Sequence record: PZ445446.1 | DNA from: a phage | Length of the DNA stretch: 64,000 bases | Strand: one strand, 5' to 3' | Made by a program: the position numbers and the translations under genes | The notes under the pieces: model-generated | What the model was told of the DNA's origin: nothing | Database searches by the model: none | The model's input: only the letters and a program-made list of their open reading frames with translations | In this document: piece by piece, positions 3,347 through 19,010 of the stretch | How the letters are laid out: every line of letters begins with the position of its first letter | How positions within the stretch are numbered: position 1 is the stretch's first letter

Positions 3347-3361
3347 CATATAGTTAACATA

Positions 3362-3390: not shown

Positions 3391-3408
3391 TATAAGGAGA
3401 TCTGAAAA

Positions 3409-3825: not shown

Positions 3826-3921
3826 CACAGGTTGAAAGGTGTGCAATTATAACTTCATAGAACGGGAGGACGTGATGAACGAAGAAAACTGGGATGTATA
3901 ACTAACAGGAGGCCACTGCCC

Positions 3922-4119
3922 ATGATTTATCGAATCCGTGTAAGAGAAGATGCACCAGGCTGTTACTTTGACTGGCGTGGGTGGTGGTTTCTCCACCCGA
4001 TGGATGGACTCACAGATAGAATGCTGGATGCTGCCCTTTATACAGATACCGACATAGAATATAATCTCTATCTGAAGGACGGTATAGATAACGGTCTATT
4101 TGAAGCAATTCCTGTGTAA
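3922..4119 (+). CDS. hypothetical small protein
   Basis: 65 aa ORF with aggagg SD. Confidence 0.4.
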   Translation: MIYRIRVREDAPGCYFDWRGWWFLHPMDGLTDRMLDAALYTDTDIEYNLYLKDGIDNGLFEAIPV

Positions 4120-4187
4120 GAGACTGTGATAGCCATGTTTTATGATCTTCCTGTAGCACCACCACCTGTTGAACCTGGAGAACTAAG

Positions 4188-4613
4188 ATGATCTATGAAA
4201 TGCCAAAACTGATTCGTGACGATGCCCAAAACGCTCACACCATTATTATGGGCAAACGCATGGATATTATTTGTCATAAAGATTTCTGGGAAGGAAGTTA
4301 CTTCACAGAGTATTTTGGTAAACTGGACAATGGTCTGCTGATCCAGTTCTACACCGATGCGGAAAACAACATTCACTGGGAGTTCGAAACTGAAGATATC
4401 CATAAACTTTTCACCTTCCTCGGTATTAAGGTTGAGGCCAAGTTTGAAGAAGGTGAGTGCGACGATTGTGGATTCTATGAGGTAACAGATTTCTACCTTC
4501 CAAGTGGTAAAAATCTCTACTACGAAAGCCACTTCGGCAACTCAAATATGCCACAGGGTTGGGATGAGTTTTTGGAAATTGCAGAAGAGGAGCTGAAATA
4601 CCGTGATTATTGA
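4188..4613 (+). CDS. hypothetical protein
   Basis: 141 aa ORF; overlaps downstream gene start. Confidence 0.45.
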   Translation: MIYEMPKLIRDDAQNAHTIIMGKRMDIICHKDFWEGSYFTEYFGKLDNGLLIQFYTDAENNIHWEFETEDIHKLFTFLGIKVEAKFEEGECDDCGFYEVTDFYLPSGKNLYYESHFGNSNMPQGWDEFLEIAEEELKYRDY

Positions 4614-5061
4614 TACTGTAAAGGGAGATCTAATCTCCATTTTCAAGAAAGGGTCAGGCCACATGATCCACGGTTGTAACTGCTTTCACACAATGGGTGC
4701 AGGTATAGCGAAAGATATTGCCCGTGAGTTCCCTCAAGCACTGGCAGCCGACAAAGAGACTGCTTATGGTAATCTAGACAAGCTGGGTATGTTTTCTTGT
4801 TGGGAGCATTTTGCCAAGACCAGGGTCGTATATGGAATCAACCTGTATACCCAGTTCTACCCAGGGCCCAATGCTGAATACTTCTCAATCATGAAAGGTT
4901 TTGAGCGAGTCAACGAGGTATTCAAAGGTATGTCATTGCCGTTCTACATTCCTAAAATCGGATGCGGTATTGGAGGTCTAAAGTGGGAACATGTAGAAGA
5001 TGTAATTAATCTTGCAACCACAGATATTGATGTGGTTGTAGTAGAGTACAAAAAGTGTTGA
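4603..5061 (+). CDS. macro-domain-like protein (putative ADP-ribose binding/processing)
   Basis: 152 aa; HGCNC...MGAGIAKDIA and IPKIGCGIGG resemble macro-domain glycine-rich ADP-ribose binding loops. Confidence 0.4.
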   Translation: MIIDTVKGDLISIFKKGSGHMIHGCNCFHTMGAGIAKDIAREFPQALAADKETAYGNLDKLGMFSCWEHFAKTRVVYGINLYTQFYPGPNAEYFSIMKGFERVNEVFKGMSLPFYIPKIGCGIGGLKWEHVEDVINLATTDIDVVVVEYKKC

Positions 5062-5115
5062 CGACCATCTTCTGAGGTGATATAGTTTCCACAACAACTA
5101 AAAGAGGAGAGCACT

Positions 5116-5286
5116 GTGGAGACTAAAATCTTAATTCTTGCTGTGGTAGATACAACCGAAGGAGCTATATTCGAATCTGCAGGAGGGTATTTCTACCTAC
5201 CATACGGAAAAAGAACTTCCGAGCCAAGTAAAGATTCAATCCTCAAAGTGTTCCCGTGTGCTTTCTGGCTGGAGATTTTGGTATAA
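5116..5286 (+). CDS. hypothetical small protein (GTG start)
   Basis: ~56 aa ORF not in track; GTG preceded by aaagaggag SD and TTGACG/TATAGT promoter-like sequence at ~5060-5092. Confidence 0.25.
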   Translation: METKILILAVVDTTEGAIFESAGGYFYLPYGKRTSEPSKDSILKVFPCAFWLEILV

Positions 5287-5312
5287 GATTGCAGATGATT
5301 TGGGAGAGAATT

Positions 5313-5507
5313 ATGAGAAACAAGAAAGAACTTTACTCTGGTGAGTGGATCAACGATCAACAGGTGGGAGAGGTAACCTGCTTCCGATGTTTTACCAGGT
5401 ACAATCTTAAAACTGCACCAAAAAGTGTTCCAAAGACTGATGGTTATTATATAAAAGAACCTCATTGCCCAAAATGTAAATGCCGATTGTACTGGAGCAA
5501 TCTGTAA
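5313..5507 (+). CDS. zinc-ribbon small protein
   Basis: 64 aa from internal ATG with ggagag SD; CFRC...CPKCKC four-cysteine motif. Confidence 0.4.
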   Translation: MRNKKELYSGEWINDQQVGEVTCFRCFTRYNLKTAPKSVPKTDGYYIKEPHCPKCKCRLYWSNL

Positions 5508-5511
5508 GAGG

Positions 5512-5539
5512 TTGACATCTGAAAACTGCAGTGTATAAT
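5512..5539 (+). promoter_or_regulatory. sigma70-like promoter
   Basis: TTGACA, 16 bp spacer, TATAAT upstream of ORF 5571. Confidence 0.5.
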
Positions 5540-5570
5540 ATACGCATAAACTAACAGAGAGCGATGTATT

Positions 5571-5762
5571 ATGGTAATTTTTAACCGGGATGGTATCATA
5601 GTTAGACAGCACCCGTTCCTTGAATACTATCAAATTGAGCAATGGTGCTACGGGGATTGCAGTCACTCCTATGGGCAAAGTTGGGGATACCGTACAGTTT
5701 TTGAATCCACAGACCTTGACAAAGTAAGACAGAAAGTTTTAGAACTTATTAACAACAAGTGA
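5571..5762 (+). CDS. hypothetical small protein
   Basis: 63 aa ORF downstream of consensus promoter. Confidence 0.45.
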   Translation: MVIFNRDGIIVRQHPFLEYYQIEQWCYGDCSHSYGQSWGYRTVFESTDLDKVRQKVLELINNK

Positions 5763-5769
5763 GTATGAT

Positions 5770-6102
5770 ATGGTAACATTAGAAAGACGTAAAGCTATTG
5801 CCGCCACACTGGCAGACATCTTTTGGGATTGTAATTTAAAATCTACCCGAAATTGTGGCGCATCTGTAGATGTATTATTCCCACGGCCTACTATTGTTGC
5901 AATGGGCAACCTTCTTGATGTGGTATATGGAGCATGGGACAAGGAAGGTGGATTCTATATCTGGCAACCTGACTACGGGACTTGGAAAGAGGTTAGTGGT
6001 TCTACGGACTTCACTCCTGCAGTGGCTAAAATGGATGGCTGGAAAATCTATGTCGGTAACGACATGGAACTGAAAGGCGAAATTGTTTACTGGTTACCTT
6101 AA
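5770..6102 (+). CDS. hypothetical protein
   Basis: 110 aa ORF, tight spacing to neighbours. Confidence 0.45.
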   Translation: MVTLERRKAIAATLADIFWDCNLKSTRNCGASVDVLFPRPTIVAMGNLLDVVYGAWDKEGGFYIWQPDYGTWKEVSGSTDFTPAVAKMDGWKIYVGNDMELKGEIVYWLP

Positions 6103-6122
6103 GAAAGTGCAGGAGATAAAGT

Positions 6123-6368
6123 ATGAACAAAGGGTGGACATTTGTAGACGGCGTTGAAAACATGCCTCTAGGAAAGTATATTGTAGCCATGGCAGATGAG
6201 AATGGCAAGGTTGATTTCGGAGCTTGCGAGATTGTTCTTGCAGGATCTGGTGACCATGTGCACAAAACTGGGATAATTAACGGTCATTTCTACTTTGATT
6301 ACAACCCTGTTGTGGCGTATATGGCTATGCCAGAGTTAGAGCTCCCAAAGGAGGGTGCAGATGTTTAA
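6123..6368 (+). CDS. hypothetical protein
   Basis: 81 aa ORF with aggagataaag SD. Confidence 0.45.
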   Translation: MNKGWTFVDGVENMPLGKYIVAMADENGKVDFGACEIVLAGSGDHVHKTGIINGHFYFDYNPVVAYMAMPELELPKEGADV

Positions 6369-6558
6369 GCTTAAATCTGCATGGAACATCGCTGTGGGGG
6401 ATGAGATCCGCATCCCAGGTGGAAAGACCATTATGAAGATATCACGTATCGAGTATGAAGGTGATCGTGTATTTCATATCTTTGCAGAAGATGGTCGAGA
6501 AATTTATATACAGGCAGGCTCTCACATCTATATCAGTAAGAAAGGGGACGACAAATGA
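6355..6558 (+). CDS. hypothetical small protein
   Basis: 67 aa ORF overlapping upstream gene end with aggag SD. Confidence 0.4.
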   Translation: MQMFKLKSAWNIAVGDEIRIPGGKTIMKISRIEYEGDRVFHIFAEDGREIYIQAGSHIYISKKGDDK

Positions 6559-6887
6559 CAGAGATCATCGTTTCAACTGCAGGGTATGTATTCCTGACAA
6601 TCATTGCGTTGGCTATTCTGGTGGCGGTGTATGGATTTGTTATCCTGCCTATTCTTGAGACATTTAGCTTGTGTCGGTGTTGGAGAAAAGCTTACGGACC
6701 ACAACCGTGGAAAGACTGGTTTCATTTGGTGCGTATAGCGTTCTCTTATGCCTATGATCACTCCAGCAGTGCATGCGTAACCGGGTACCATGCCTACAAC
6801 TGGAACTGGGAAGGGCTTGGGAGATGGACTGTTACAAAAACTATACCCTTACGGTTGTATAAAGGAAAGAACACACTGGGAGCCTGA
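6555..6887 (+). CDS. putative membrane protein
   Basis: 110 aa; ATGA overlap with upstream gene; N-terminal hydrophobic segments. Confidence 0.4.
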   Translation: MTEIIVSTAGYVFLTIIALAILVAVYGFVILPILETFSLCRCWRKAYGPQPWKDWFHLVRIAFSYAYDHSSSACVTGYHAYNWNWEGLGRWTVTKTIPLRLYKGKNTLGA

Positions 6888-6889
6888 TA

Positions 6890-7900
6890 TTTTAAGTTAT
6901 CAGATTGCCAGAGATCAGGAGGATTTCTAAAATGGATTTCCTCCTTTTGATATTTTACCTACCAGGATATTTTAAAATCCTTAGAAAATCAGAAAATGGA
7001 TCGAAAACTAAAATGGATTTTTCAGAGCAGGCACGACGAGATGAACCACTCATCCTATCGTCTGCACCATATTCCAGACCACCATTACAGATTTCCCGCA
7101 CATGCTCACACCCTTCTACTAGAACTTCCCCCACTTACCCTTGACCTTTTATAGTAATAATCCAACCACTACCTTGAAGTTGTGGCGCAGCTTTCCAAGT
7201 ACTCGATCTGTTTTTCGTTTCAAAGATTGAATTTTCTGAAAATTTTTCTCGATAAATTTCTCAGTACTCGATCTGTTTTTCGTTTTCTGAATCGGATTTT
7301 CTGGAAATCGTTCCGGCTCTCGACCTGAAATTTTTGGGGACGAAATCGATTTTTCGTTTTCAGAAATGGATTTTTAAAATTTCTATATGGGAATATTTTA
7401 GTGGATACTATTTTATAGGAAATTGTTACGGAGGATAATTAGCGTGCTAATTAAATTTATTAAATGCGAGGAGTTCTCATTTAGAATTTTGAATGATAAT
7501 CATTCTCGTTTGCAGAATAACGGGCAGGCCCGGTGATTGTCTCCCGGCCCCTACTGCCCCGGCTTGTTATTATAGTAACACACAGGACAAAGAAAGCAAG
7601 AAGTTTTTGCATAAATTTTTAGACGATAATGATAATCGTTCTCATTTCATGCAGCGCCCATCCCCGGTGGTTGTCTCCCCCGTCACCGGTGCCTGCCGTC
7701 CTTTCGATAGGTATATTTTGCCACCTGGCGGGGCCGCTGTCAACACTTTTCAAAAAAAAAAAAAATTCTAACCTGATGCGCTGACCGCTGCAACCTGGCG
7801 GGGCCAGCCTGGCAGGGCCTAACTGACCAGGTAGGAGAGAATGAAGGCTTGCAAACCTGGTGGGCCTATGCTATAGGATAGGTAACAATTGAAGAGGAGG
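6890..7900. repeat. non-coding repeat-rich region
   Basis: Two direct copies of gtactcgatctgtttttcgttt (~7200 and ~7264), several aaatggattt / gattttc units, paired gataatc(a/g)ttctc and gtg(a/g)ttgtctccc copies, and an A14 homopolymer at ~7752-7765. Confidence 0.6.
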
Positions 7901-7907
7901 TACAAAA

Positions 7908-8045
7908 ATGGAAGGTAATATGATCCCCCTGGTTGAAAAGGCTATGGCGGGAGCGTTGGAACATAAAGAAGAGTACGAAAAAATGATGGTTAACCTGGCA
8001 GGGGCGGCGGCTGGAGAATTCTACCCAAAAAATAATTTTAACTAA
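7908..8045 (+). CDS. hypothetical micro-protein
   Basis: 45 aa ORF not in track; strong SD agaggagg 6 nt upstream of ATG. Confidence 0.35.
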   Translation: MEGNMIPLVEKAMAGALEHKEEYEKMMVNLAGAAAGEFYPKNNFN

Positions 8046-8130
8046 TGGTTGACAGCTCGGACAGTTCTTGTTATTCTTATCCTCACAAGGTGAACAACAC
8101 CACACCAATTAACAGAGAGGATAAAAAATC

Positions 8131-8328
8131 ATGAACGCCTACGGAATTAAAGTACGTCGCAACACTCGCCAGGTGGTCACCAATCAAGTGATTTGCCGGG
8201 TGGATGTAACCATCAACAACGGGCAAGGCCTTTATAAATTTCGTCGCGGTCATAGCTATACCCTGCAACAGCTTAACCGTTGCGCCCTGACAAAAGGTCA
8301 GATCAACCACTGGTTTAATAAAAAATAA
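8131..8328 (+). CDS. hypothetical small protein
   Basis: 65 aa ORF; TTGACA promoter-like sequence at ~8048 and agagaggataaaaaatc SD. Confidence 0.45.
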   Translation: MNAYGIKVRRNTRQVVTNQVICRVDVTINNGQGLYKFRRGHSYTLQQLNRCALTKGQINHWFNKK

Positions 8329-8391
8329 TGTTGACATATGGTCTGACACAAAATACACTGAAATCACAAAAGACACTAAGAGGATAAAATC

Positions 8392-8790
8392 ATGAAAACC
8401 ACTACCTTTAATTTTGATAATGCGGACTTTTCTTTTTCTGATGTCAAGAACTGCCGCCGTGATCGTGGATTTTACAAGGCTTATAATCTGGTGGGCCTGG
8501 ACGATGACAATAATTTGCACGAAGTAGCTGAGATCCGGTATTATGCCGCCGCCAGTGGTAACACTCACTACTGCGTGTTTTGGATTCACGACAACAAGAA
8601 CAATAAGTACGGTTATACTGGCGGCAAGGCGAGCGGTCACGGTTACGATAAAGCTAACGCAGCACTTGAGAGCGCATTAAATGCTATGGGGATCACTGCC
8701 GACGGCTGGATCTACGAAGAAGAGTTTTTGTCGGCACTTGCTGACCACCTGGGCTATAAAAAGCACATTGTGACATGCGCCCACGAATAA
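8392..8790 (+). CDS. hypothetical protein
   Basis: 132 aa ORF; TTGACA promoter-like at ~8331 and aagaggataaaatc SD. Confidence 0.5.
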   Translation: MKTTTFNFDNADFSFSDVKNCRRDRGFYKAYNLVGLDDDNNLHEVAEIRYYAAASGNTHYCVFWIHDNKNNKYGYTGGKASGHGYDKANAALESALNAMGITADGWIYEEEFLSALADHLGYKKHIVTCAHE

Positions 8791-8873
8791 AAATCATTGA
8801 CACGCTGCAAAATTTAAGTAAACTAGACACAAAAGGCGGGAATGTTTCCCGCCAGCACAAAGGAAAAAAGATC

Positions 8874-9269
8874 ATGAATAAGAACGTACGCCGCATCATG
8901 AACGAACTGGCAAACGATGAAAAAATTATTGACATGCATTTAGTCAACATTTGCCGCCGTTGTGTAACATATAACAACCGCGCCGCAAAAGCGCGTGAGA
9001 TGAACGCAAAAGGCACCTTAAAGCCCTTTCAGGTGGTTGTAAAATCTATAACCAGTGCAGCAGGCCAGGCGCATGACCACAACAACGGGAGCACTAATAT
9101 TGATCCGTCTTACGTAATGAAACGGATCCGGACTTGCAAGAATAAAGAGCAGGTGTATAATGTCATAGACTGGTTGGATTCTATGGGCGATGTGGTTTAC
9201 AATAGGTTTTCTGCAGCTATCGAGATCCAGCTTGACAGGTTGGACGGTAAAGTACTGAAAACTTACTAA
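8874..9269 (+). CDS. hypothetical protein
   Basis: Internal ATG at 8874 chosen; upstream TTGACA, then 5'-UTR hairpin ggcggga-atgtt-tcccgcc, then aggaaaaaag SD. Confidence 0.45.
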   Translation: MNKNVRRIMNELANDEKIIDMHLVNICRRCVTYNNRAAKAREMNAKGTLKPFQVVVKSITSAAGQAHDHNNGSTNIDPSYVMKRIRTCKNKEQVYNVIDWLDSMGDVVYNRFSAAIEIQLDRLDGKVLKTY

Positions 9270-9271
9270 GA

Positions 9272-9318
9272 TTATTTTTAGATGGCCTTGACTTCAGGGC
9301 CATCAATAAAGTAAACTA
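9272..9318 (+). repeat. repeated intergenic promoter-hairpin element, copy 1
   Basis: attatttttagatggccttgacttcagggccatcaataaagtaaact; a 7-bp inverted repeat (gatggcc/ggccatc) encloses a TTGACT -35-like hexamer. Confidence 0.6.
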
Positions 9319-9349
9319 ATCCCAGTTAAGCGAAAAAGGAGGCTTGAAG

Positions 9350-9469
9350 ATGAGCACTACACGCCAACACACAAAGGTAACGATTATCGTTTGCATCATT
9401 GGTTACATCCTGGCGCAAATGTTGATGGGTAGCGCCAATGATTTCGCAAAATTTTTCTTAGACTTTTAA
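9350..9469 (+). CDS. hypothetical small membrane peptide
   Basis: 39 aa ORF not in track; aaaggagg SD; hydrophobic core IIVCIIGYILAQMLM. Confidence 0.35.
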   Translation: MSTTRQHTKVTIIVCIIGYILAQMLMGSANDFAKFFLDF

Positions 9470-9497
9470 TTGACAAGCTAACTTAAATCAGTATAAT
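9470..9497 (+). promoter_or_regulatory. sigma70-like promoter
   Basis: TTGACA, 16 bp spacer, TATAAT upstream of ORF 9550. Confidence 0.55.
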
Positions 9498-9549
9498 ACT
9501 AAGCACATAAACGGGAAAACTTCCCAGAACACCAAAAGGAGAAAACATT

Positions 9550-9900
9550 ATGAATACTTCCATCACTATGACCGCCGAAGAAAAAGCCCTGCAGATCGCC
9601 GCTCTGAAAAAACAGATTGCAGAACTTGAAGACAAGATCGACAATTTTGAAATCGACGAAGACAAGTACGACGATAAATATGATGAATGGTTAGACGAGA
9701 TCTACGGCGAAATTATGATCGGAAACATTTCTTTTCTTCCGTCGCGTATCCTCAAGGAGCTAGATCCTATCGCTTACCGCTGCGGATTTAGCGACTACAT
9801 CGACAGCCTGGATATTGAGGACGATGAAGAATACCAGGAATTACAGACAGAGTTAGAAGAAGCAAAAGAAGAGCTTGCAGAACTGGAAGAAAACGAGTAA
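9550..9900 (+). CDS. hypothetical acidic coiled-coil protein
   Basis: 116 aa ORF with aaaggagaaaac SD; highly acidic and heptad-like. Confidence 0.5.
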   Translation: MNTSITMTAEEKALQIAALKKQIAELEDKIDNFEIDEDKYDDKYDEWLDEIYGEIMIGNISFLPSRILKELDPIAYRCGFSDYIDSLDIEDDEEYQELQTELEEAKEELAELEENE

Positions 9901-9950
9901 GATTATTTTTAGATGGCCTTGACTCCAGGGCCATCAATAAAGTAAACTTT
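9901..9950 (+). repeat. repeated intergenic promoter-hairpin element, copy 2
   Basis: Near-identical to copy 1 (gatggccttgactccagggccatcaataaagtaaac), directly after the stop at 9900. Confidence 0.6.
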
Positions 9951-9989
9951 ATACTGTTAACACTGAACTAATGCATAGGAGTTAAAACC

Positions 9990-10235
9990 ATGGCAGCACT
10001 AATCACCAAATATTATGCCCCTACCAACACCAAAAGCGCCCGTATCATGGTAAAAGGCTTCGGACGTAAAAAGGTGTACACCTGGGATTATGCCTTAGAC
10101 ACGGAAGACAACTACACCAACGCGATGACCGATTTTATTAATGATCTGAACACGCGGATCTTGACAAATTATAAAATTACCGATATTGCCTATATAGGGG
10201 AAGGCGGGATCTGTTTTGTCGGTATCGTCAAATAA
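9990..10235 (+). CDS. hypothetical protein
   Basis: 81 aa ORF with aggag SD downstream of repeat element copy 2. Confidence 0.45.
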   Translation: MAALITKYYAPTNTKSARIMVKGFGRKKVYTWDYALDTEDNYTNAMTDFINDLNTRILTNYKITDIAYIGEGGICFVGIVK

Positions 10236-10310
10236 GCTGTTTTTTCGGTGGTCCTGGTAGCAGGGCCATCTATAAAGATAGTTTATCAATACAATGAAAG
10301 GAGAAAGTAC

Positions 10311-10664
10311 ATGATCAGCGGGGCAAGTTTTATTATTGGCGCTATTGCTACGGCTTTAATTGTAAACAAGATCCAATCTAAAAACGAAAAAGATAGCAAC
10401 GCCCTTACAGAATACCCGTTTTGGGTATTCAACGACAATGAAGACTATATTATCAAGTACAAGAATGAGAAGGGCGACCAGGTAACACCGCGACCGATCC
10501 CGGCTTACAAGATGCAAGAAACACTATACCGCCTAAAGGCTGGAGGCGCAAAAATCGTAGACTTTTGGGGATACGATCACACAGATCAGGAAGTTATAAA
10601 GCGCCGTATCCGGGCTATTCAGGCCAATATTGAAGTTAGCAAGGGGGGAATATATGAAGATTAA
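10311..10664 (+). CDS. putative membrane-anchored protein
   Basis: Internal ATG at 10311 with aaaggagaaag SD; N-terminal hydrophobic segment; degenerate copy of the repeat element upstream at ~10236-10290. Confidence 0.45.
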   Translation: MISGASFIIGAIATALIVNKIQSKNEKDSNALTEYPFWVFNDNEDYIIKYKNEKGDQVTPRPIPAYKMQETLYRLKAGGAKIVDFWGYDHTDQEVIKRRIRAIQANIEVSKGGIYED

Positions 10665-10851
10665 TTTTGAGAAGATTGTAAAGCGATCTCATGCTTCCGA
10701 AGAGCTGCCGGAACGCCGCCAGCGCAACAATAAACTGAATAAGCCAAAAAGATTTGGGAAGATCTGGCGGAATCATTATGATCGCAAATTACCGGGCCTG
10801 CTTTTGGAACGTGAACGACAGGCGGAACGATACCGCCACAAAGGCAAATAA
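10654..10851 (+). CDS. hypothetical basic small protein
   Basis: ~66 aa from ATG at 10654 with aaggggggaa SD; Arg/Lys rich. Confidence 0.4.
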   Translation: MKINFEKIVKRSHASEELPERRQRNNKLNKPKRFGKIWRNHYDRKLPGLLLERERQAERYRHKGK

Positions 10852-10858
10852 CAACCAA

Positions 10859-10887
10859 CGCCCCGCCATTGTGCGGGGCTTTTTATT
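10859..10887 (+). terminator. rho-independent terminator
   Basis: Hairpin ccccgc-cattgt-gcgggg followed by ctttttatttc. Confidence 0.6.
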
Positions 10888-11092
10888 TCTATCCTACAAA
10901 TAGCGCCCCTGGTTGGCCCTGTAAGCGCCAAAAAGGCCCCACCTATGCAATCGCCCCCCTTTAACCTGAAAACATCGCTTAGGGCCGTTTTATGGCGTTA
11001 AAAATATCATTGACAGTGATTTTATTTAAAGCTTGACATCTTAAACAGGTTAGCTATACTAACCACATCAAAGAGAGAAAGGAGTAAACGCC

Positions 11093-11341
11093 ATGCGTAA
11101 ATTAAAAAATTTTGATAAAGTTGATGTTGTCCTGAATAATTTTTACTACTGCAACAACAAGGCCATTTGGTGGCGTGATAGTTCCACCGATAAAGTCAAG
11201 GCGCGCTTTCTCCAGGGGCACTGGCAAGGCCGCCCAGTGATTAAAATCATGGGGCAATTGGTAGCGTTTAAAAATTGCCGCCGTGTTGATGACGTTGAAG
11301 AGATCTTGAATATTTTACGCCACAATAATTTAAAAAAATAG
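11093..11341 (+). CDS. hypothetical protein
   Basis: 82 aa ORF; TTGACA/TATACT promoter-like at ~11026-11055 and aaaggag SD. Confidence 0.5.
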   Translation: MRKLKNFDKVDVVLNNFYYCNNKAIWWRDSSTDKVKARFLQGHWQGRPVIKIMGQLVAFKNCRRVDDVEEILNILRHNNLKK

Positions 11342-11343
11342 TG

Positions 11344-11371
11344 TTGACAAGTAAATCTCAATAAGTATACT
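11344..11371 (+). promoter_or_regulatory. sigma70-like promoter
   Basis: TTGACA, 16 bp spacer, TATACT; followed by 5'-UTR hairpin ggcgggaa-gttt-tcccgcc and SD. Confidence 0.55.
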
Positions 11372-11428
11372 TAAGCACACAGGCGGGAAGTTTTCCCGCC
11401 ACTAACAAAGAAAATAGGAGAAAATATC

Positions 11429-12052
11429 ATGACCACCGTTAACATTACCACAGGTTGCAATTTATCTTTCGACGTGCTGACCGATGAACAAAAAGAAAAA
11501 GCTATTGAAATGGTCCGCGAAAGAGAAGAACACAGCGGAGAGGATTTTTTCGCAGAAAGTGTAATTGAATATTATAAAGAACAAGTTTTTCCAGAGTACG
11601 GCCTTGAAGATACCGATGTACATTGGTCCGGCTTTTGGTGTCAAGGCGATGGCGCGTCAATTAGTGCTGAAAATGTAGACTTAGAGAAATTCTTGCGTAA
11701 AGTCAAGGCCCTGACCAAGTTCCGATCAATTCGTCACTTGTTCGGAACAATGCACGATGGCGAACTATCAGCCAGTGTTGAACGCGACAAGTACAGCCAT
11801 TACAGCCATGAAAACACTGTAAGCGGATATATTGATACTACCTGGCTAGATCTGACCGCAAAACAAGAAAATAAAGTAGAAGATCTGGAAGAGCTGATCA
11901 CCGAGACGGTACGGGAGCTATCCCGCAAGGTTTATGTAGACCTGGAGGAGGCCTATCTTGAACAGTTTACTACCGAAAACCTGATCGGCCTTATTGAAGC
12001 CAATGATTGGCGGTTTGATGTGGATGAATATGGAGAAATGAGTTTTTCATAA
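11429..12052 (+). CDS. hypothetical protein
   Basis: 207 aa ORF with ataggagaaaatatc SD; no recognisable motif. Confidence 0.5.
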   Translation: MTTVNITTGCNLSFDVLTDEQKEKAIEMVREREEHSGEDFFAESVIEYYKEQVFPEYGLEDTDVHWSGFWCQGDGASISAENVDLEKFLRKVKALTKFRSIRHLFGTMHDGELSASVERDKYSHYSHENTVSGYIDTTWLDLTAKQENKVEDLEELITETVRELSRKVYVDLEEAYLEQFTTENLIGLIEANDWRFDVDEYGEMSFS

Positions 12053-12143
12053 ATAAAGTGTTGCAATAATCTAAAAACCTGCTATATTAAAACTTAAGGG
12101 GGAGAGATGACTTGCCCCCACACAAAACAAAGAGGAAAACATC

Positions 12144-12524
12144 ATGAAAAACACTACTAAAGCTATTGACACCGTTATGTTTAACCTGGTTACATTCCGT
12201 GAAGATATGAAAGATCTTCCACGTGAAACAGTGTGCGACCATATCGAAAACTATCGCAAACTAATCAAAGAGTTGCCTTTAAAACGTGACCAGTACGCGG
12301 CTAACGCTATGCTTAACGCCATGATCAAGAAAATGATTCAGTGCGATTTGACTTTAGCTTATGATTATGCAGGTGGTCGTTTTGCAGTATACAATCAGCC
12401 CGTGCCTGGTATGAGCACCACAGAAGAATTGCACGCGTTAAATCTAAAACAAGACGTATGGGATAACATGCCCCGCGTGGTGGTGTGGGCAGAAAGCGGA
12501 AAGATTTACGGCGATAATTTTTAA
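12144..12524 (+). CDS. hypothetical protein
   Basis: 126 aa ORF with aagaggaaaacatc SD; TTGCAA/TATATT promoter-like and GC hairpin upstream. Confidence 0.5.
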   Translation: MKNTTKAIDTVMFNLVTFREDMKDLPRETVCDHIENYRKLIKELPLKRDQYAANAMLNAMIKKMIQCDLTLAYDYAGGRFAVYNQPVPGMSTTEELHALNLKQDVWDNMPRVVVWAESGKIYGDNF

Positions 12525-12588
12525 TCAGGTAACAGGCGGCATATTTGCCGCCTTATTGTTAAACAGAACTGCAAAAGAGGTACATAGA

Positions 12589-12960
12589 ATGGAATTTATT
12601 ATTTTGGCTGTAGTAGTTGCCTTGTTCAACGCCTGGATCGCTGGCAAGATGGGTAGATCCGCTTTTCTATGGTTTGTTATATCTATTTTCCTGGGAGTGG
12701 TTGCAACTATTGTATTGGTTATCCTTGCAATTGTTGACAAGGGGAATAATAGAAAGGGTAAAGTATTTTCAGACCTGTACGACGCTCAAACGTTTGTCAA
12801 CGCCTATTATAGTGATCTTCCAGTCTCCCTACGCTGCAGCCTGGCACAACAGGTTTTTGATGAGGCTAAAACCAGAGACCAAGCCCATGAGATATGTTTA
12901 ACTGAGGCGGATCGCCTATTTGAGAGGAATAGAAAATATGTGGACCAGCCGTTTAAATAA
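12589..12960 (+). CDS. putative membrane protein
   Basis: Internal ATG at 12589 with aaaagagg SD; two predicted TM segments. Confidence 0.45.
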   Translation: MEFIILAVVVALFNAWIAGKMGRSAFLWFVISIFLGVVATIVLVILAIVDKGNNRKGKVFSDLYDAQTFVNAYYSDLPVSLRCSLAQQVFDEAKTRDQAHEICLTEADRLFERNRKYVDQPFK

Positions 12961-13179
12961 TGCCACGTTAATTAACCCCTTTAGTGAAGATTTGAAGCCA
13001 GCCGCCTGGCGGGATGGATTCAATAACGAAAGCTTTATTTTCAGGCCTGATCTTAAGGAATTTTATAACAATGGATCGAACAACGACAGAGATAATTTTT
13101 CTTGTAATGTGCGTGGTGATAATACTCCTGGGGGCCATTGCAAACCACGTCACTGCTAACAGGAGGAAAGGGGGAGACG

Positions 13180-13299
13180 ATGACACCCAAGGATAAGCCC
13201 CGCACCGATAAGGCGCGCCGTGTTATGGTATGGCTTGAGATCATCGCCCTTGAAATATTGTTAGGCGTAGGGATGTATTTTATCGCTGTAAGTAACTGA
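13180..13299 (+). CDS. hypothetical small membrane peptide
   Basis: 39 aa ORF not in track; strong SD aggaggaaaggggga; hydrophobic C-terminal half; terminator follows. Confidence 0.3.
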   Translation: MTPKDKPRTDKARRVMVWLEIIALEILLGVGMYFIAVSN

Positions 13300-13303
13300 T
13301 AAC

Positions 13304-13340
13304 GGCCCCGATCCCTGGGGCCTAACTTTTCAAATTTTTT
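13304..13340 (+). terminator. rho-independent terminator candidate
   Basis: Hairpin ggcccc-gatccct-ggggcc followed by T-rich tract. Confidence 0.5.
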
Positions 13341-13438
13341 CTCCCTGAGTGTTGCAATCCGATCCAGAATATGGATAATAACAATCAACGGGGAGACACT
13401 CCCCACCGCATAGACAAAGTTCCAAAAGGAGAAACAAA

Positions 13439-13639
13439 ATGAGCAACAATATCCGCGTTATTAACTTCAAAAAAGAAGAAAAAATTGCCGTGCTGATTGA
13501 CGGTCAAGAAATCTTTAAAGGTGATTATGAAGATCATCAAACGGCGATTAGTATCACTCGCGTGATTGGTTACCATAATTTTTACCCTCAAGGCGCTGAG
13601 GCAGCAGTAAAACGAATTAAAGAGATTGTAGGCCTGTAA
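13439..13639 (+). CDS. hypothetical small protein
   Basis: 66 aa ORF; TTGCAA/TAATAA promoter-like and aaaaggagaaac SD. Confidence 0.45.
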   Translation: MSNNIRVINFKKEEKIAVLIDGQEIFKGDYEDHQTAISITRVIGYHNFYPQGAEAAVKRIKEIVGL

Positions 13640-13640
13640 A

Positions 13641-13690
13641 ATTTATTTTTAGATGGCCTTGACTCCAGGGCCATCAATAAAGTAAATTTA
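13641..13690 (+). repeat. repeated intergenic promoter-hairpin element, copy 3
   Basis: atttatttttagatggccttgactccagggccatcaataaagtaaat, directly after the stop at 13639. Confidence 0.6.
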
Positions 13691-13730
13691 AACCCTGTTA
13701 AAATAATCAGTGCAAAAAGGAGTAATGATC

Positions 13731-14030
13731 ATGTTTATCCAGGCTAATAATCTTTATTTCTTTGATGGTCAGATCGTAGACGGCGTGGAGGTGGAAATCA
13801 CCGGGTGCCCTGGCGGTCAGGTTATGACTTTTCGGAATAATGCCTTTGATGATTCTCATATCGTTATGAGAATGGAAGTTAGTAAGCTGGATGACAAGAA
13901 AACACTTATCGACTATTCCGTCAAAGATCATCCAGACTACCACATGATCTATGGTGATTTGTGCATTGTTGACCGTGACAAGGTGGGCGGCATTGTGATC
14001 GCTATTGTGAACGATGTTTTCTCAAACTAA
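13731..14030 (+). CDS. hypothetical protein
   Basis: ATG at 13731 with aaaaaggagtaatgatc SD (track start 13710). Confidence 0.45.
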   Translation: MFIQANNLYFFDGQIVDGVEVEITGCPGGQVMTFRNNAFDDSHIVMRMEVSKLDDKKTLIDYSVKDHPDYHMIYGDLCIVDRDKVGGIVIAIVNDVFSN

Positions 14031-14047
14031 TTTCAGCAGGTGATTTT

Positions 14048-14398
14048 ATGAAAGTAAAACTATATTACCTTAATGAGCTTAACCCCCTTGCCCAGGTCCG
14101 CGCCCTGGCTAATACCTTGATTTGTGAGAAATCTGTATATTGTGTTGAGCTTAACGCCATGCGTGAACGTCTCAAAGGTGGTTACTTTGACATCCATGCT
14201 GCAATCAACGGCCTGAATATGGAATTTATCCGCTTACGTAACAGCCGCCAGAATCTGGCAAGAATGGAACAAGATCCGGCCCACCTTCGTAAGCTGGTTA
14301 TTGAAAATCATCTGATGTTTAATGCCGATGGTGATTATTACCATTTTCACCGCAAACGCTGGTACCGTGGCGGCAATACAGGCAAGAATGCAAAATAA
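14048..14398 (+). CDS. hypothetical protein
   Basis: 116 aa ORF; weak SD; hairpin plus T-tract after stop. Confidence 0.45.
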   Translation: MKVKLYYLNELNPLAQVRALANTLICEKSVYCVELNAMRERLKGGYFDIHAAINGLNMEFIRLRNSRQNLARMEQDPAHLRKLVIENHLMFNADGDYYHFHRKRWYRGGNTGKNAK

Positions 14399-14599
14399 GG
14401 CCCCAGGCAGGGCCTGCAGCGATATAATCACATAAAGGCTATGCGGTTGCATGGCCTTTATTATTTTAGCGTTACAGCGGCCCCAAGGCGCTTAAAAAAT
14501 TTTTAAAGAAGTACTTGCATCAAGTCCTACAATATGGATAATAGGACGTGTCAGGGGGGCGGCCCCCAATCATTAACCGGATAGATAGGAGTTAAAATC

Positions 14600-14884
14600 A
14601 TGGCTATTGTCACCGTTGGCGATGTAGTGGAAATGGAAGCAAAATACTTAAAAGCGGGTATGCATATCCTACGGAATGATCAAGAATTGTTATTAACGAT
14701 GGTAGACTATAATCCCGGCCAGGATTATCCAAGCATCGACTACTTTTTTGAGTATGTTGATGAAGAATTGAAAGAGGATGAGGCTTATCAGGGTGAATTC
14801 TGCAATTTCTTTTGCCCTGATGAGGTTGTAAAAGTTATCTATCAACCTGGAGTACCTTTCCCGCTGCACGCTATCAATAAATAA
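14600..14884 (+). CDS. hypothetical protein
   Basis: 94 aa ORF; TTGCAT/TAATAG promoter-like, GC hairpin ggggggcggccccc, ataggag SD. Confidence 0.45.
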   Translation: MAIVTVGDVVEMEAKYLKAGMHILRNDQELLLTMVDYNPGQDYPSIDYFFEYVDEELKEDEAYQGEFCNFFCPDEVVKVIYQPGVPFPLHAINK

Positions 14885-14938
14885 ACCTGGTGGGGCCGAA
14901 AAGGCCCCAATTATGAAAATAAAGAGAGGTAAATCATC

Positions 14939-15172
14939 ATGATGGAACAAATTAAACGCGCTGAGTCTATTAATGGCAATGTGATCTATTTTGTCAGCAA
15001 AAACGAAAAAGGCGTACCATATGCGGCGGTAATAGTACAACCTGACGGCGATTATTGGTTTACTGTGTACGGCGCTTATTCTTTTGGGCGTCCGGTGCAT
15101 GATAGAATTTTGAAAGTAGCGAACCCTACCGGGAAAAATATTACAGCAGAAAAATTTTTTGAAAATAGTTGA
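14939..15172 (+). CDS. hypothetical protein
   Basis: 77 aa ORF; 5' hairpin ggggcc-gaaa-aggcccc then aagagaggtaaatc SD. Confidence 0.45.
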   Translation: MMEQIKRAESINGNVIYFVSKNEKGVPYAAVIVQPDGDYWFTVYGAYSFGRPVHDRILKVANPTGKNITAEKFFENS

Positions 15173-15249
15173 CATGACCATATAAGACTGTAGAATATAA
15201 ATCAAAGGGGGCAACAAGCCCCACCAACCACAAAGAGGATAAAAAATCA

Positions 15250-15426
15250 TGGCTATTATTGCAAAGACTGAGATCGTAGGCTTAGATTCTATTCTCCTCG
15301 CATATGAGGAAGCTATAGAAATGTATGTGGTTTCCTATGGTGAATATATCCGTGAATATAAATCTATTGATCTGGCTTTTGAATGTTATATTCGCCAGGT
15401 TAATAAAGCGTACGATGATTATCGTT
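15250..15426 (+). CDS. hypothetical small protein
   Basis: 58 aa ORF not in track; TTGACA/TAGAAT promoter, hairpin ggggc-aacaa-gcccc, aaagaggataaaaaatc SD. Confidence 0.4.
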
Positions 15427-15518
15427 AAAATAGCTTGACAACAAACAACCATCTAACAAAGCATAATACATAAGGCGGTGGAATGGTCCGCCACCTGGAA
15501 CAAGAAGAGGAAAACAAG

Positions 15519-15623
15519 ATGAAACAGAAATTAATTGATGCGGTGATCCTGGTTATTGCCCTGGGTATTGGCCTGATTGCAACCATGTCTAATATGATCT
15601 TGTCTTCCAACGGTATCGGGTGA
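15519..15623 (+). CDS. hypothetical small membrane peptide
   Basis: 34 aa ORF not in track; TTGACA/TAATAC promoter, hairpin, aagaagaggaaaac SD; single hydrophobic helix. Confidence 0.3.
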   Translation: MKQKLIDAVILVIALGIGLIATMSNMILSSNGIG

Positions 15624-15632
15624 GGTTGGCAA

Positions 15633-15848
15633 ATGATCACTAACAAAACAGGCAAAACAGAATTTTTACGCAACTTACAGATCGGCAAGCCTGAGATCTG
15701 GTATTGCACTAAAACACCACGTGACGAAATGAAAGACTTCACCGCCACGCTGCAACGGGTAAAGATATCCATCACGCAGAAAAAGGCCTTATTAGTGGTG
15801 GAAGGTGAGATCCCCCAAACCGTTGTTATAGTTGGGCGTACAGCATAG
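15633..15848 (+). CDS. hypothetical protein
   Basis: 71 aa ORF directly downstream of micro-ORF; weak SD. Confidence 0.35.
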   Translation: MITNKTGKTEFLRNLQIGKPEIWYCTKTPRDEMKDFTATLQRVKISITQKKALLVVEGEIPQTVVIVGRTA

Positions 15849-15939
15849 TTTAATTTATACCGATACCCGAAAATTAACCAACAAAGCATAAACAGGCGGT
15901 TACCGCCGCCTTAAACGTAGCAGAAAGAGGATAGACACA

Positions 15940-16224
15940 ATGAAAAAGATGATCGCAGTGGTTGCCCTGGTTGTTGGACTTAATGCGCCTGTAATGGCTA
16001 AAGAGCTGGCAAAAGAGGTTAATCTAACGGATATTCATGCCGTCAATCAAATAGGGGTTACTTATCGCTTATGCCTTGCCGCTAAAACTTTTAAGGACGG
16101 CACGACAGAGTACTACGGATTCGAGGGTATCCGGTGCGGTGAGCTTGCTCGCGACCTTAAGGAAGATCCAGACCTGGAAGATCTGCCCATAACCGTGAAC
16201 GGGAAAACTTACGTAAACCGTTAA
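15940..16224 (+). CDS. putative secreted protein
   Basis: 94 aa; N-terminal signal-peptide-like MKKMIAVVALVVGLNAPVMA; hairpin and gaaagagg SD upstream. Confidence 0.45.
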   Translation: MKKMIAVVALVVGLNAPVMAKELAKEVNLTDIHAVNQIGVTYRLCLAAKTFKDGTTEYYGFEGIRCGELARDLKEDPDLEDLPITVNGKTYVNR

Positions 16225-16373
16225 CCATGAGAAAGATAATTATCACCTTGGGGATTGTGGCGGGATCGCTGGCGCTCTTTCCCCTTATGGTTAGATATGT
16301 GCTGATCAGTATTGTCCTGATAGTCAGTGATCTATTGGAAACGGTTGGCACCTTGTTTTAAAGAGCGGTAAAA

Positions 16374-16565
16374 ATGAATATCGAACAAGTTAGAAAGGTA
16401 TTAGCAGTACTGCGTTATCATAATCATAGAAAGGTTATAGACGATCCTGATTATGTTGATTCAAGTCTGGAAGGGGATACACTGCAAGCCATAAGCAACA
16501 TGCAAGAATTGCTAAAGCGCATGACAGAGAAAAACCGACCGGACTACATAGGCGAAAAAATATAA
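16374..16565 (+). CDS. hypothetical small protein
   Basis: 63 aa ORF; hairpin plus T-run terminator follows. Confidence 0.4.
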   Translation: MNIEQVRKVLAVLRYHNHRKVIDDPDYVDSSLEGDTLQAISNMQELLKRMTEKNRPDYIGEKI

Positions 16566-16582
16566 TCCTTATAAACTACAAA

Positions 16583-16610
16583 ACAGGGCTTGCAATGGTC
16601 CTGTTTTTTG
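16583..16610 (+). terminator. rho-independent terminator
   Basis: Hairpin acaggg-cttgcaatggt-cctgt followed by tttttg. Confidence 0.5.
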
Positions 16611-16777
16611 TTATACTTGTTTCACGGCAGGCACCTGGCGACGGGGGGAGACAATCACCGGGTGTGCCTGCTATATAAAAATTATAAAAACCGTTGACAT
16701 CTGCCAGGTGGTGGGGTAGCATTTATCTCGAAGGGGGCAAAAGCGCCCACACAACAACCGGAAGAGAGGAAAACGCC

Positions 16778-17050
16778 ATGTTAAGCTGGATTAACCAAGA
16801 AGTTGAATCACGTTTTAATGCTATTTGGGATCTCATCGAAAAAGAGGACGGAACATCAAGCCCTTATCTCAATAATCTTGAATTCCATTTCGTGGAAGCG
16901 ATGAACGCAGAACATGATCACGAAGGTGGTGCGGATGAATTCGCTAAAGGATATGGCTTCAACAATGCCAACGAAATGATCGAGGCGGTTGTACTCCAGG
17001 CTGAGGAAGATTATCAATTAAAAACGCTTGAATTCTGCCGCCGTAAGTAA
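16778..17050 (+). CDS. hypothetical protein
   Basis: Internal ATG at 16778 with gaagagaggaaaacgcc SD; TTGACA promoter-like and hairpin upstream. Confidence 0.45.
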   Translation: MLSWINQEVESRFNAIWDLIEKEDGTSSPYLNNLEFHFVEAMNAEHDHEGGADEFAKGYGFNNANEMIEAVVLQAEEDYQLKTLEFCRRK

Positions 17051-17110
17051 TAAGATAATGACACGGGCCAAAAGGCCCACTAATCAGAACCGCACAAAGA
17101 GGTAAACATC

Positions 17111-17374
17111 ATGAAACGTCTTGATCAGCTCAAATTAGTTCAATATATGGCTTATCGTGTTCTTGAAGTCCAGAAAGGTAGCAAAAAAGAGGTTTGCGAG
17201 AAAGCTTATAAGATCTTCACTCGCAAAAAAGATGACTGGATGCTGCGCCAGACTAAAAAGGCTGACATCTTGGGGTACCTGGAAGAAGAGATCCGCCTTG
17301 AAGAGCAAGAAGAGATCCGCCGTAGTGAGGCAGATTATCAGGCAGCTTGGGAAAACTGGATGAGCAACAAATAA
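17111..17374 (+). CDS. hypothetical protein
   Basis: 87 aa ORF; hairpin gggcc-aaaa-ggccc then aaagaggtaaacatc SD. Confidence 0.5.
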   Translation: MKRLDQLKLVQYMAYRVLEVQKGSKKEVCEKAYKIFTRKKDDWMLRQTKKADILGYLEEEIRLEEQEEIRRSEADYQAAWENWMSNK

Positions 17375-17440
17375 TACAACAAGTTACATGGTCAGGGGCA
17401 ATAAAGCCCCTTGATCACATAAAAATTATGCTATCCCTGG

Positions 17441-17469
17441 TTGACAGGGATCGGCAGTTTTGCTATATT
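17441..17469 (+). promoter_or_regulatory. sigma70-like promoter
   Basis: TTGACA, 17 bp spacer, TATATT upstream of ORF 17519. Confidence 0.55.
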
Positions 17470-17518
17470 CTTTTTTGAAGGGAAGTTGTAAGAAAATTAA
17501 CTAAGAGGTAAAAACACC

Positions 17519-17938
17519 ATGAACATTAAATCTAATAATCCGGCATATAGCTTTGATAACGCTTTTTGTCACGGTCCGGCGGCGAAAGGATTCGAAATCG
17601 ATGGTAAACTAATTATTGTCAATGTTGACGGGGAAGAGGTTGCAGTATATCCGGTGGCAGACGTAAAAAGCCGTTTACAATGCCGCATGGATGTTACCGC
17701 CTATCAGCTTGATCCGGTCCGCATAGTTGCCCTGGTCCTGGAAGAAGAAATTAAAGCCATGCACCATAGCAACAGATTTATTGGTGACGCGCAGGATAAT
17801 ATGAAAGTATGCCGCCATAAAGTTAATGAAGTGCTTAAAGAGTACGGCTATAAAGATCTTATGATCAAACGTGAGGAAAAATTCCGCTACCGTAACGACC
17901 TGGCAAATCGGATTTTTGAAATATACGAATCATTATAA
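17519..17938 (+). CDS. hypothetical protein
   Basis: 139 aa ORF with taagaggtaaaaacacc SD; last gene of the rightward block. Confidence 0.5.
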   Translation: MNIKSNNPAYSFDNAFCHGPAAKGFEIDGKLIIVNVDGEEVAVYPVADVKSRLQCRMDVTAYQLDPVRIVALVLEEEIKAMHHSNRFIGDAQDNMKVCRHKVNEVLKEYGYKDLMIKREEKFRYRNDLANRIFEIYESL

Positions 17939-17956
17939 TTTTTTAACTGAATTATC

Positions 17957-17981
17957 AAGGGGCTTAGGCCCCTTTCTTTTT
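17957..17981 (+). terminator. rho-independent terminator
   Basis: Hairpin aggggc-ttag-gcccct followed by ttcttttt. Confidence 0.6.
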
Positions 17982-18539
17982 GTCTGCTCTTCTCCTACCA
18001 TAAACGGCCCTACCTGGCAAGTGGAATAATTGACTAGCCATCAATCCCACATACTGTACAAATATACATGGAAAATAACTATTGCATAATTTTTCATTGT
18101 GTGGTAGCAAGTCCATTTTTACCCGTTTTCTCTCCCAAAAGTGCACGTAATGCCGCTATTGCACAAATTTTAACCTGATGCACATCTCCAATATCTTGTC
18201 AACAACTAAAAATCTTTATAAGTCATACACTTACACAGCATCGAAAGCGTGTTCTACGCGAAAAATCGAGTATAACTATAGCCGCCAGATCTCAGAATTC
18301 ACGTACGCACGCCATTCTATAGCCTGCAAAGTATTTATTCCAACCACAGAATAACGGAATAGTCAATACCTGCATAAAATAATTATTCGTGTAAACTGCA
18401 TAACATAAATCAGCTCAGGTGTCAACATTTTTCGTAAACAGTCCGAAATTATCACGATGAGCTATCATAAACAGAGAAATATTTAGTCGTCTAATGTTTA
18501 CTGTACATTACTATACTGACTGGAATCATTAGATGACTA

Positions 18540-19010
18540 AGAGAAAGATAAGAAATAATTAATAATGTAATTATTTTACCTGTAACAATAAGGCAACTAT
18601 GCAAACGAATGGCATGGCGCGACGGAGTCGCGACATAATATAAAAGCAGTAACCATCACCCCCGTGATAGTTTGTCTGCAAACTATTAATCAGATCATAG
18701 TTGCCTTGTATTTAGTTAATCATGACATAACAAGCAAGGCAACTATAGATCTTCTAATAGTTGCCCTGCTTTTATATTATGTCATAGGAACGCCCGAAGG
18801 GGTGACCTAGTCACCTGGTATAGCCAGCGAAAGATTATTAACTTGTCGATTGTTATCTTGTTAATTGTTTTCATGCAAACGAATGGCATGGCTTATCATC
18901 TATGCGTGAACAGTGAGGCATGCAATAGTAACAATTGTTATTGTATCCAGTGTGTTGAGTATGCCCAGTGTGTCACTATTATGTCATATTATGTCACAGT
19001 ATGTCAGACA
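18540..19010. repeat. iteron-like repeat cluster in non-coding convergence zone
   Basis: Direct and inverted copies of caaggcaactat / atagttgcc, two copies of atgcaaacgaatggcatggc (~18597 and ~18877), and a run of (t)atgtca(t/c/g) units at ~18975-19010. Confidence 0.5.

Follow-up and report, generated by a model that had tools for sequence, protein, structure and literature searches.

Promoter-early stem-loop (PeSL) cassettes have been described in T4-type phages (RB49/phi1, T4/PST and KVP40/nt-1; Arbiol et al. 2010, PMC2839356; Comeau et al. 2014, PMC4122927). They begin at the stop codon of the upstream gene, in AT-rich sequence, and combine a sigma-70 promoter with a stem-loop that contains G-T pairs and falls into five positional subclasses, one of them overlapping the -35; they adjoin ORFans in plastic regions, where crossovers remove or add modules and give rise to mini-circles (PMC2839356, PMC4122927). 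Here we analyse a repeated intergenic element of ~50 bp in a 64-kb stretch of record PZ445446.1 (the window, whose numbering is used for all coordinates), which derives from a Vequintavirus (rV5-like coliphage) 99% identical to phage MaxBurger. The element is best read as a regulatory linker that resembles PeSL but belongs to another phage lineage, and hence as a cassette of a kind already known from T4-like phages. That it is a composite promoter/stem-loop cassette, PeSL-like and acting as a recombination linker in the Vequintavirus early region, is the explanation we favour, with modest confidence.

Like PeSL, the element is intergenic, begins within AT-rich sequence at the stop codon of the preceding gene and ends at a Shine-Dalgarno (SD) sequence and start codon; it forms a stable stem-loop with a U.G pair over the -35 (z -5 to -8.6) that shows covariation; and it lies in a plastic region beside small ORFans, with insertion/deletion junctions inside the cassettes (a 631-bp loss in at least five genomes, and an exchange with phage KKE7M, both described below). 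Where PeSL have their sigma-70 promoter, it has TTGACN-18-TAAAYT with a hexamer match of 9-10/12, and one of its four copies, copy 4, is without a -35. It differs from PeSL in lineage, the Vequintavirinae being unrelated, and in sharing no sequence similarity with them; in number (3+1 copies versus ~50); in its weaker promoter (TTGACN-18-TAAAYT versus a near-perfect one with N17); and in its hairpin, which at ~23 bp spans the entire promoter including the -10, is retained by the promoter-less paralogue and has no terminator tail. Our literature search found no paper linking PeSL with rV5-like or phi92-like phages.

The core of the element, GATGGCCTTGACNNCAGGGCCATC, occurs exactly at 9281-9304, 9912-9935 and 13652-13675, always on the + strand; 100 shuffles put the chance expectation at 0 matches. 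A repeat search places these cores within a 51-nt family at 9267-9317, 9898-9948 (98% identity) and 13638-13688 (90%), with a further member at 10233-10283 (69%); the three near-identical copies and the degenerate fourth announced in an earlier note on this DNA are thus real. All four start at or adjoin the TAA stop of a small + strand gene; TTATTTTT comes after the TAA, and the SD and ATG of the next gene follow 32-55 nt further on, as that note had also maintained of their placement. For copies 1-3 the distance to the start codon is 32-42 nt, within the range of canonical promoters in the region. The copy-number check that it had called for, run with a covariance model of the family, returned these four intergenic sites only in the 64-kb window (77-86 bits on the + strand, 26-40 bits on the - strand), the next match having E ~1. 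The copies and their parts are as follows.

9267-9317, + strand: element copy 1; TAA stop at 9267-9269, next gene starting at 9350.
9269-9278 and 9308-9317, + strand: 5' and 3' arms of the lower stem of the copy 1 hairpin, whose upper stem is at 9281-9290/9295-9304 and whose loop, ACTT, is at 9291-9294.
9288-9293 and 9312-9317, + strand: putative -35 (TTGACT) and putative -10 (TAAACT) of copy 1.
9898-9948, + strand: element copy 2; TAA stop at 9898-9900, next gene starting at 9990.
9912-9921/9926-9935, + strand: upper stem of copy 2, with loop ACTC, a putative -35 at 9919-9924 and a putative -10 at 9943-9948.
13637-13688, + strand: element copy 3; TAA stop at 13637-13639, next gene starting at 13731.
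13652-13661/13666-13675, + strand: upper stem of copy 3, with a putative -35 at 13659-13664 and a putative -10, TAAATT, at 13683-13688.
10232-10286, + strand: diverged copy 4, a hairpin without -35; next gene starting at 10311.
10232-10244/10274-10286, + strand: lower stem of copy 4, 13 bp, including TAA at 10233-10235.
10247-10256 (GGUGGUCCUG) / 10261-10270 (CAGGGCCAUC), + strand: upper stem of copy 4, with loop GUAG.

When folded as + strand RNA, the element forms an upper stem of 10 bp (GAUGGCCUUG/CAGGGCCAUC, one pair being U.G), capped by the tetraloop ACUY. Below it come a 2x3 internal loop and a 7-13-bp A/U lower stem, in which the upstream U-run pairs with the downstream AAAGUAAAY (the putative -10 region), to give an interrupted hairpin of 20-23 bp in total. 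The TTG of TTGACT sits within the upper stem, which encloses the -35. The 7-bp inverted repeat of the earlier note is therefore only part of a hairpin twice as long, made of the 10-bp stem plus the lower stem. Fold energies of the four copies on the + strand range from -20.7 to -28.2 kcal/mol (z -5 to -8.6), with copy 4 the strongest hairpin (-28.2 kcal/mol, z -8.55); the - strand folds far more poorly, and copy 4 gives no - strand fold at all. By raw energy these are not the most stable structures of the window, copy 4 ranking ~15th and copy 3 ~41st in a scan of all its hairpins, which revealed no additional family members. An Rfam scan of 7000-19000 at E<=10 gave just sub-threshold noise over the elements, nothing near gathering scores.

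The hairpin is conserved and strand-specific. Counted over 33 distinct copies, which were extracted at 17 loci, all 330 of the 330 upper-stem cells are paired, and the four variable pairs of this stem change through wobbles that are pairs on the + strand only (A-U to G.U, C-G to U.G, U.G to C-G, G-C to G.U). In the lower stem, double changes occur at five pairs: 14-62 (G-C, A-U, G.U), 15-61 (U-A, C-G), 17-59 (U-A, G.U, A-U), 18-58 (A-U, U-A) and 10-67 (A-U, U-A), the last being the outermost and unpaired in most copies. In total, 92.5% of cells are paired, versus 35-55% with slid partners, and 0 of 500 shuffles attain the observed value; phage copies overall score 77-92 bits with the covariance model on the + strand versus 26-42 bits on the - strand. 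In copy 4 the loop drifts (GTAG, GTTG, GCTG, GTGG, GTAA) while both stems stay intact. Because this copy keeps the hairpin without a -35, the RNA constraint is separable from the -35, and selection acts on the pairing itself, independent of the promoter. Moreover, because the pairing is strand-asymmetric, it points to an RNA structure in mRNA (less likely, to + strand single-stranded DNA) and not to a DNA cruciform or operator. The occlusion of the -35 by DNA or RNA structure, suggested earlier, accordingly gives way to an RNA hairpin in read-through transcripts, whose conserved pairing is strand-specific via G.U; a DNA cruciform occluding the -35 was rejected on account of this asymmetry.

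Where the element lies, small hypothetical early genes follow one another on the + strand. Most intergenic spacers of at least 50 nt in this run consist of a stop codon, a near-consensus TTGACA-16/17-TAnnnT promoter, ~10 nt, a GC-rich leader hairpin, SD and ATG, and these promoters are P185, P186, P192, P194, P195 and P195A of the rV5 genome paper (PMC3606486). Copies 1-3 present TTGACN, an 18-nt spacer and TAAAYT, preceded by a T-rich tract, and TTGAC is conserved in them: the loop AC that completes it is invariant in 23 of the 24 distinct copies from sites 1-3, whereas loop positions 3-4 vary freely (T/A/G/C, then C/T), and several genomes have a perfect TTGACA. An invariant AC beside free positions 3-4 fits a -35 hexamer, and nothing known of hairpin loops predicts such a pattern. 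In copy 4, CTGGTA stands in place of the -35. A promoter scan found no other match ahead of the genes that follow the four copies. Copies 1-3 would be moderate sigma-70 promoters; a transcript begun at such a promoter would exclude the hairpin. The promoter and the -35/-10 spacing 'about right' put forward in the earlier note hold in part, given the invariant TTGAC of copies 1-3 and the in-register replacement of a canonical -10 by TAAAYT in KKE7M (below), whereas a 9/12 match at an 18-nt spacing is of a level frequent by chance in the region.

Module loss and exchange occur at the element. The segment concerned is the following.

9318-9948, + strand: 631-bp module delimited by copies 1 and 2, found in some Vequintavirus genomes and missing from others.
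Contents of the module, + strand: 40-aa gene at 9350-9469; promoter P192 at 9470-9497; 116-aa gene at 9550-9900; copy 2.

At least five genomes (ECP32, phiWec189, magaca, ECP26 and the IMG/VR contig 2051223002_000007) are without exactly these 631 bp and have a single hybrid element instead, a lower bound to which a blast search with the hybrid junction added only ECP26. Thus, ECP32 aligns to 3304-9317 and then to 9889-14939, the overlap being the 61-bp element, and the IMG/VR contig has a 49-bp alignment overlap inside its one hybrid element; among module-less genomes these overlaps span 49-61 bp. The four hybrid elements that were read (ECP26 not among them) have differing flank and loop haplotypes, which suggests repeated events, or else recombination after a single event. 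Identical loop and flank variants also recur at different paralogous sites in different genomes, suggestive of gene conversion among the paralogous sites. The recombination-prone module that the earlier note had offered as one possibility is therefore borne out by exact loss between copies and by transfer between subfamilies, with the element as module boundary. A separate case is the rV5-derived record rV5_ev146, from whose early region two stretches are missing, 0.5 kb (8860-9361) and 5.85 kb (10802-16652); the deletion junctions show 10-15 bp of microhomology. Hence ~20 of the small early genes can be dispensed with. An element-mediated 4.4-kb deletion in this phage was considered and is ruled out, the losses being two unrelated microhomology deletions.

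Exchange extends beyond the subfamily. KKE7M, a Justusliebigvirus (Stephanstirmvirinae), has one element copy, which scores 78.8 bits with the covariance model, within the following block.

9469-9952, + strand: block shared with KKE7M, 484 bp at 89% identity, with P192, the gene at 9550-9900 and the element.
9470-9497, + strand: P192, a canonical sigma-70 promoter (TTGACA-16-TATAAT), at the left junction of the transferred block.

The homology runs from the -35 of P192 to the TAAAYT of the element. Its sister phage muut is without the block and has there a canonical promoter, TTGACAAGATAACTAAAATCAG-TAAACT (TTGACA-16-TAAACT), followed by ATATTCATTAAGGCGGTGG…; the left junction in KKE7M falls within the spacer of that promoter and the right junction within AGTAAA(Y)T. 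As a result, the TAAATT of the KKE7M element occupies exactly the position of the muut -10, at equal distance to the leader hairpin and the gene. This shows promoter hexamers acting as crossover points, and the comparison of KKE7M with muut is the best indication, albeit an indirect one, that the element can take the place of a promoter. A second small block, at 5524-5711 in KKE7M and 15243-15430 in the window, is 94% identical and includes a 59-aa gene; the two subfamilies have therefore exchanged single genes outside the element-bearing module as well.

The composite cassette that we favour would operate in three layers. At the RNA level, read-through mRNA would fold right after the stop codon into the 20-23-bp interrupted hairpin, whose most probable role is in processing or stabilising 3' ends (as an RNase III-type substrate or as a barrier to exonucleases), or else in weak attenuation. 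At the DNA level, the apical stem-loop and the 3' lower arm would spell a sigma-70 promoter for the next small early gene. In evolution, as the genomes above display, the ~50-bp copies and the promoter hexamers are crossover points where modules are deleted, converted and exchanged, also across subfamilies. We rank processing or stabilisation ahead of attenuation, and the hairpin probably has a role of this kind rather than in termination: a strong terminator is unlikely, since the hairpin lacks a U-tract and since the strongest hairpin, that of the promoter-less copy 4, precedes two promoterless conserved genes.

RNase III requires ~22 bp; where there is an internal loop it cuts once, and a protective hairpin stays on the 3' end (PMC1540722, PMC6212723). 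With 10 + 7-13 bp and a 2x3 internal loop, the predicted fold attains the ~two helical turns of an Escherichia coli RNase III substrate, and its length, internal loop and position after the stop codon fit the published requirements of that enzyme. In this the element resembles the early RNase III signals of T7 (R0.3, R0.5, R1, R1.1 and R1.3), which are likewise repeated similar hairpins after stop codons in a polycistronic early mRNA, with a GC-rich upper stem (9-13 bp in T7, 10 bp here) with wobble pairs, and an internal loop plus lower stem of ~two helical turns (PMC1540722), some T7 sites also adjoining promoters. Unlike the T7 signals, with which it shares no sequence homology, the element is a predicted substrate. 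For this comparison we assumed the positions of the T7 sites and their cleavage in the internal loop, which the T7 RefSeq record does not annotate; folds of the T7 intergenic regions at the assumed positions recovered the upper stems. In T7, the R1.1 RNase III site immediately precedes gene 1.1. The record of phage I29 calls the homologue of the 65-aa gene at 10654-10851 'phage T7 gp1.1 domain protein'.

A bolder form of the composite cassette, which we put forward tentatively and hold to be rather doubtful, is a dual code in which a sigma-70 promoter lies inside an RNase III-type processing hairpin: read-through mRNA would be cut and 3'-stabilised just where a new transcript starts, and small genes would thereby become autonomous portable units able to move between unrelated subfamilies via crossovers in the -35 and -10.

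Several points weigh against the composite cassette. The hexamers match at 9/12 (10/12 with TTGACA) with an 18-nt spacer, a level at which chance suffices here (46 found versus 29 expected). The element is not among the 33 promoters of the rV5 genome paper (PMC3606486, Table S4), where its hairpin is unlisted too, and our literature search found no Vequintavirus transcriptome or transcription start site study. Spacing is not fixed: the spacer is 19 nt long at site 1 of Phage 203, and hexamer geometry is altered further in the most diverged contig (from IMG/VR), where the hairpin is retained. Since the -10 lies within the lower stem, its conservation is inseparable from the RNA constraint. Independent covariation events are few: most stem from the divergence of copy 4 from copies 1-3, from the two copy-4 haplotypes (C-G versus U-A at 15-61) and, within copies 1-3, from G-C versus A-U at 14-62, so we regard covariation support for the hairpin as good, not overwhelming. 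As to processing, the T7 folds at the assumed positions did not recover lower stems at most sites, and RNase III specificity is unpredictable from fold alone. Finally, rV5_ev146 has lost copies 1 and 3, and so neither is essential in the laboratory.

An alternative is a pure RNA element: the four sites would be hairpins for the processing or stability of mRNA (RNase III sites, for instance) whose resemblance to promoters is incidental and whose downstream genes are expressed by read-through. The hairpin of copy 4 without -35, the chance-level promoter score, the spacer changes tolerated in Phage 203 and the IMG/VR contig, and the silence of the rV5 promoter list all speak for it. It leaves unaccounted for, however, the loop AC that is invariant while positions 3-4 are free, the in-register substitution of TAAAYT for a canonical -10 in KKE7M, and the distance of 32-42 nt to the start codon, as for canonical promoters here. 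RNase III is not known to have a loop requirement. Overall, we consider this reading unlikely, if the least unlikely of the alternatives.

A somewhat poorer prospect is that of a classical PeSL, in which the stem-loop would be the terminator or insulator of the upstream cassette and the promoter would restart transcription. The drop in lacZ expression caused by a PeSL stem-loop was as strong as that caused by the rrnB T1 terminator (PMC2839356), and the element shares with Rho-independent terminators a GC-rich stem-loop directly downstream of a stop codon. In contrast to such terminators, its U-run lies upstream, on the 5' side, and an A-rich run downstream, whichever strand is read; there is no U-tract 3' of the hairpin on either strand, the hairpin being followed by AAUAAAGUAAA, and a terminator scan was silent on both strands. 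Nor did ARNold-type searches by two annotation teams make a call at the element. Copy 4, with its strong hairpin and no promoter, is followed by two conserved, promoterless genes (10311-10851) that need read-through; for this reason and for the missing U-tract, a canonical terminator was rejected.

That the element is a function-less repeat, a recently duplicated or selfish linker kept solely by recombination or gene conversion, would agree with the 90-98% identity of the copies, with polymorphisms common to paralogous sites and with the dispensability of copies 1 and 3 in rV5_ev146. It is nonetheless very improbable, as the same four positions are kept in ~120 genomes and each stem change in copy 4 is compensated despite an identity of 69%. 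Marginally less probable even than this is a DNA operator, a 7-10-bp inverted repeat bound over the -35 by a dimeric phage or host regulator that shuts off the promoters: a palindrome is indeed centred on the -35 in three near-identical copies, but substitutions keep G.U pairing on the + strand only and break the DNA palindrome (with 2 mismatches in the 7-bp half-sites of copy 4, where RNA pairing is kept), half-site centres 17 bp apart are atypical and lower-stem covariation has no operator explanation, so that the regulator binding site suggested earlier is not supported and a palindromic operator was rejected on account of the strand asymmetry of pairing.

Close counterparts of the element lie in its surroundings. 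The canonical early cassettes of the same genome (P185, P192, P194, P195 and others) have the same place between stop, SD and ATG and the same class of small genes, and the KKE7M-muut pair indicates that element and canonical cassette are interchangeable in register. The canonical cassettes differ in that their hairpin follows the -10, in the 5' leader, in having near-consensus hexamers with 16-17-nt spacers, and in not being near-identical 50-mers. The record of phage EdH4 annotates neighbouring promoters and terminators and leaves the element unannotated. At least eight spacers in 7800-17500 share the stop/promoter/hairpin/SD layout, among them 8797-8853, 9470-9526, 11344-11401, 12061-12115, 13352-13408, 15169-15222 and 16694-16745; their leader hairpins are often GGCGGGAA..TTCCCGCC or GGGGG..CCCCC, and an ACA-rich tract separates the hairpins from the SD and ATG. 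As a whole, the early region thus looks PeSL-like, with stem-loops placed as in the PeSL subclass that has them after the -10, an organisation not yet described in rV5-like phages.

The search of other phage genomes proposed in the earlier note found the element by blastn in 120 phage records, all Vequintavirus, at ~3 places per genome and at the same positions, and in KKE7M; at this sensitivity no other genus had it. Exact-core and protein-anchored scans of IMG/VR yielded two Vequintavirus contigs only and little added diversity. There was no blastn match to the element in 5,426 E. coli genomes, and hence it is not host-derived (REP/BIME/ERIC). Seventeen of the element-bearing records (MG0656xx) are named 'Campylobacter phage' (host C. 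jejuni); in the region they are 93-100% identical to E. coli Vequintavirus genomes, and their names and host assignments look doubtful.

Other repeats were observed in the window. A second small intergenic family (CCTG..GGCC(A/G)AAAAGGCCCCA..TATG), with a GGCC/GGCCCC hairpin, is found at 10918-10950 and 14886-14918. Three direct repeats of ~47 nt, spaced by 65-74 nt (AGTACTCGATCTGTTTTTCGTTT...), lie at 7189-7374, around a gap (6888-7181) without a convincing ORF; the MaxBurger annotation has GTG/TTG-start mini-ORFs over them. Near-perfect inverted repeats at 18680-18790, with 25-27 bp stems on both strands, fall in a ~2.5-kb non-coding gap between the + strand early block and - strand genes, the 'non-coding' box of the rV5 map. 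At 58840-58925, four tandem 21-22-nt repeats, each with the palindrome GTCCGT..ACGGAC, form the most stable fold of the window (-34.8 kcal/mol); they are iteron-like and may be an origin or a regulator array.

If the composite cassette is what the element represents, PeSL-type linkers would not be peculiar to T4-like phages but convergent in large virulent coliphages, where they would make small accessory genes self-contained and exchangeable. KKE7M and muut offer an example, at base-pair resolution, of a cassette moving between two phage subfamilies via crossovers in promoter hexamers, and the promoter-less copy 4 separates RNA from promoter constraint, making a role of the RNA directly testable. 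The 50-bp repeats would moreover be predictable points of deletion and insertion in Vequintavirus genomes for phage therapy and engineering.

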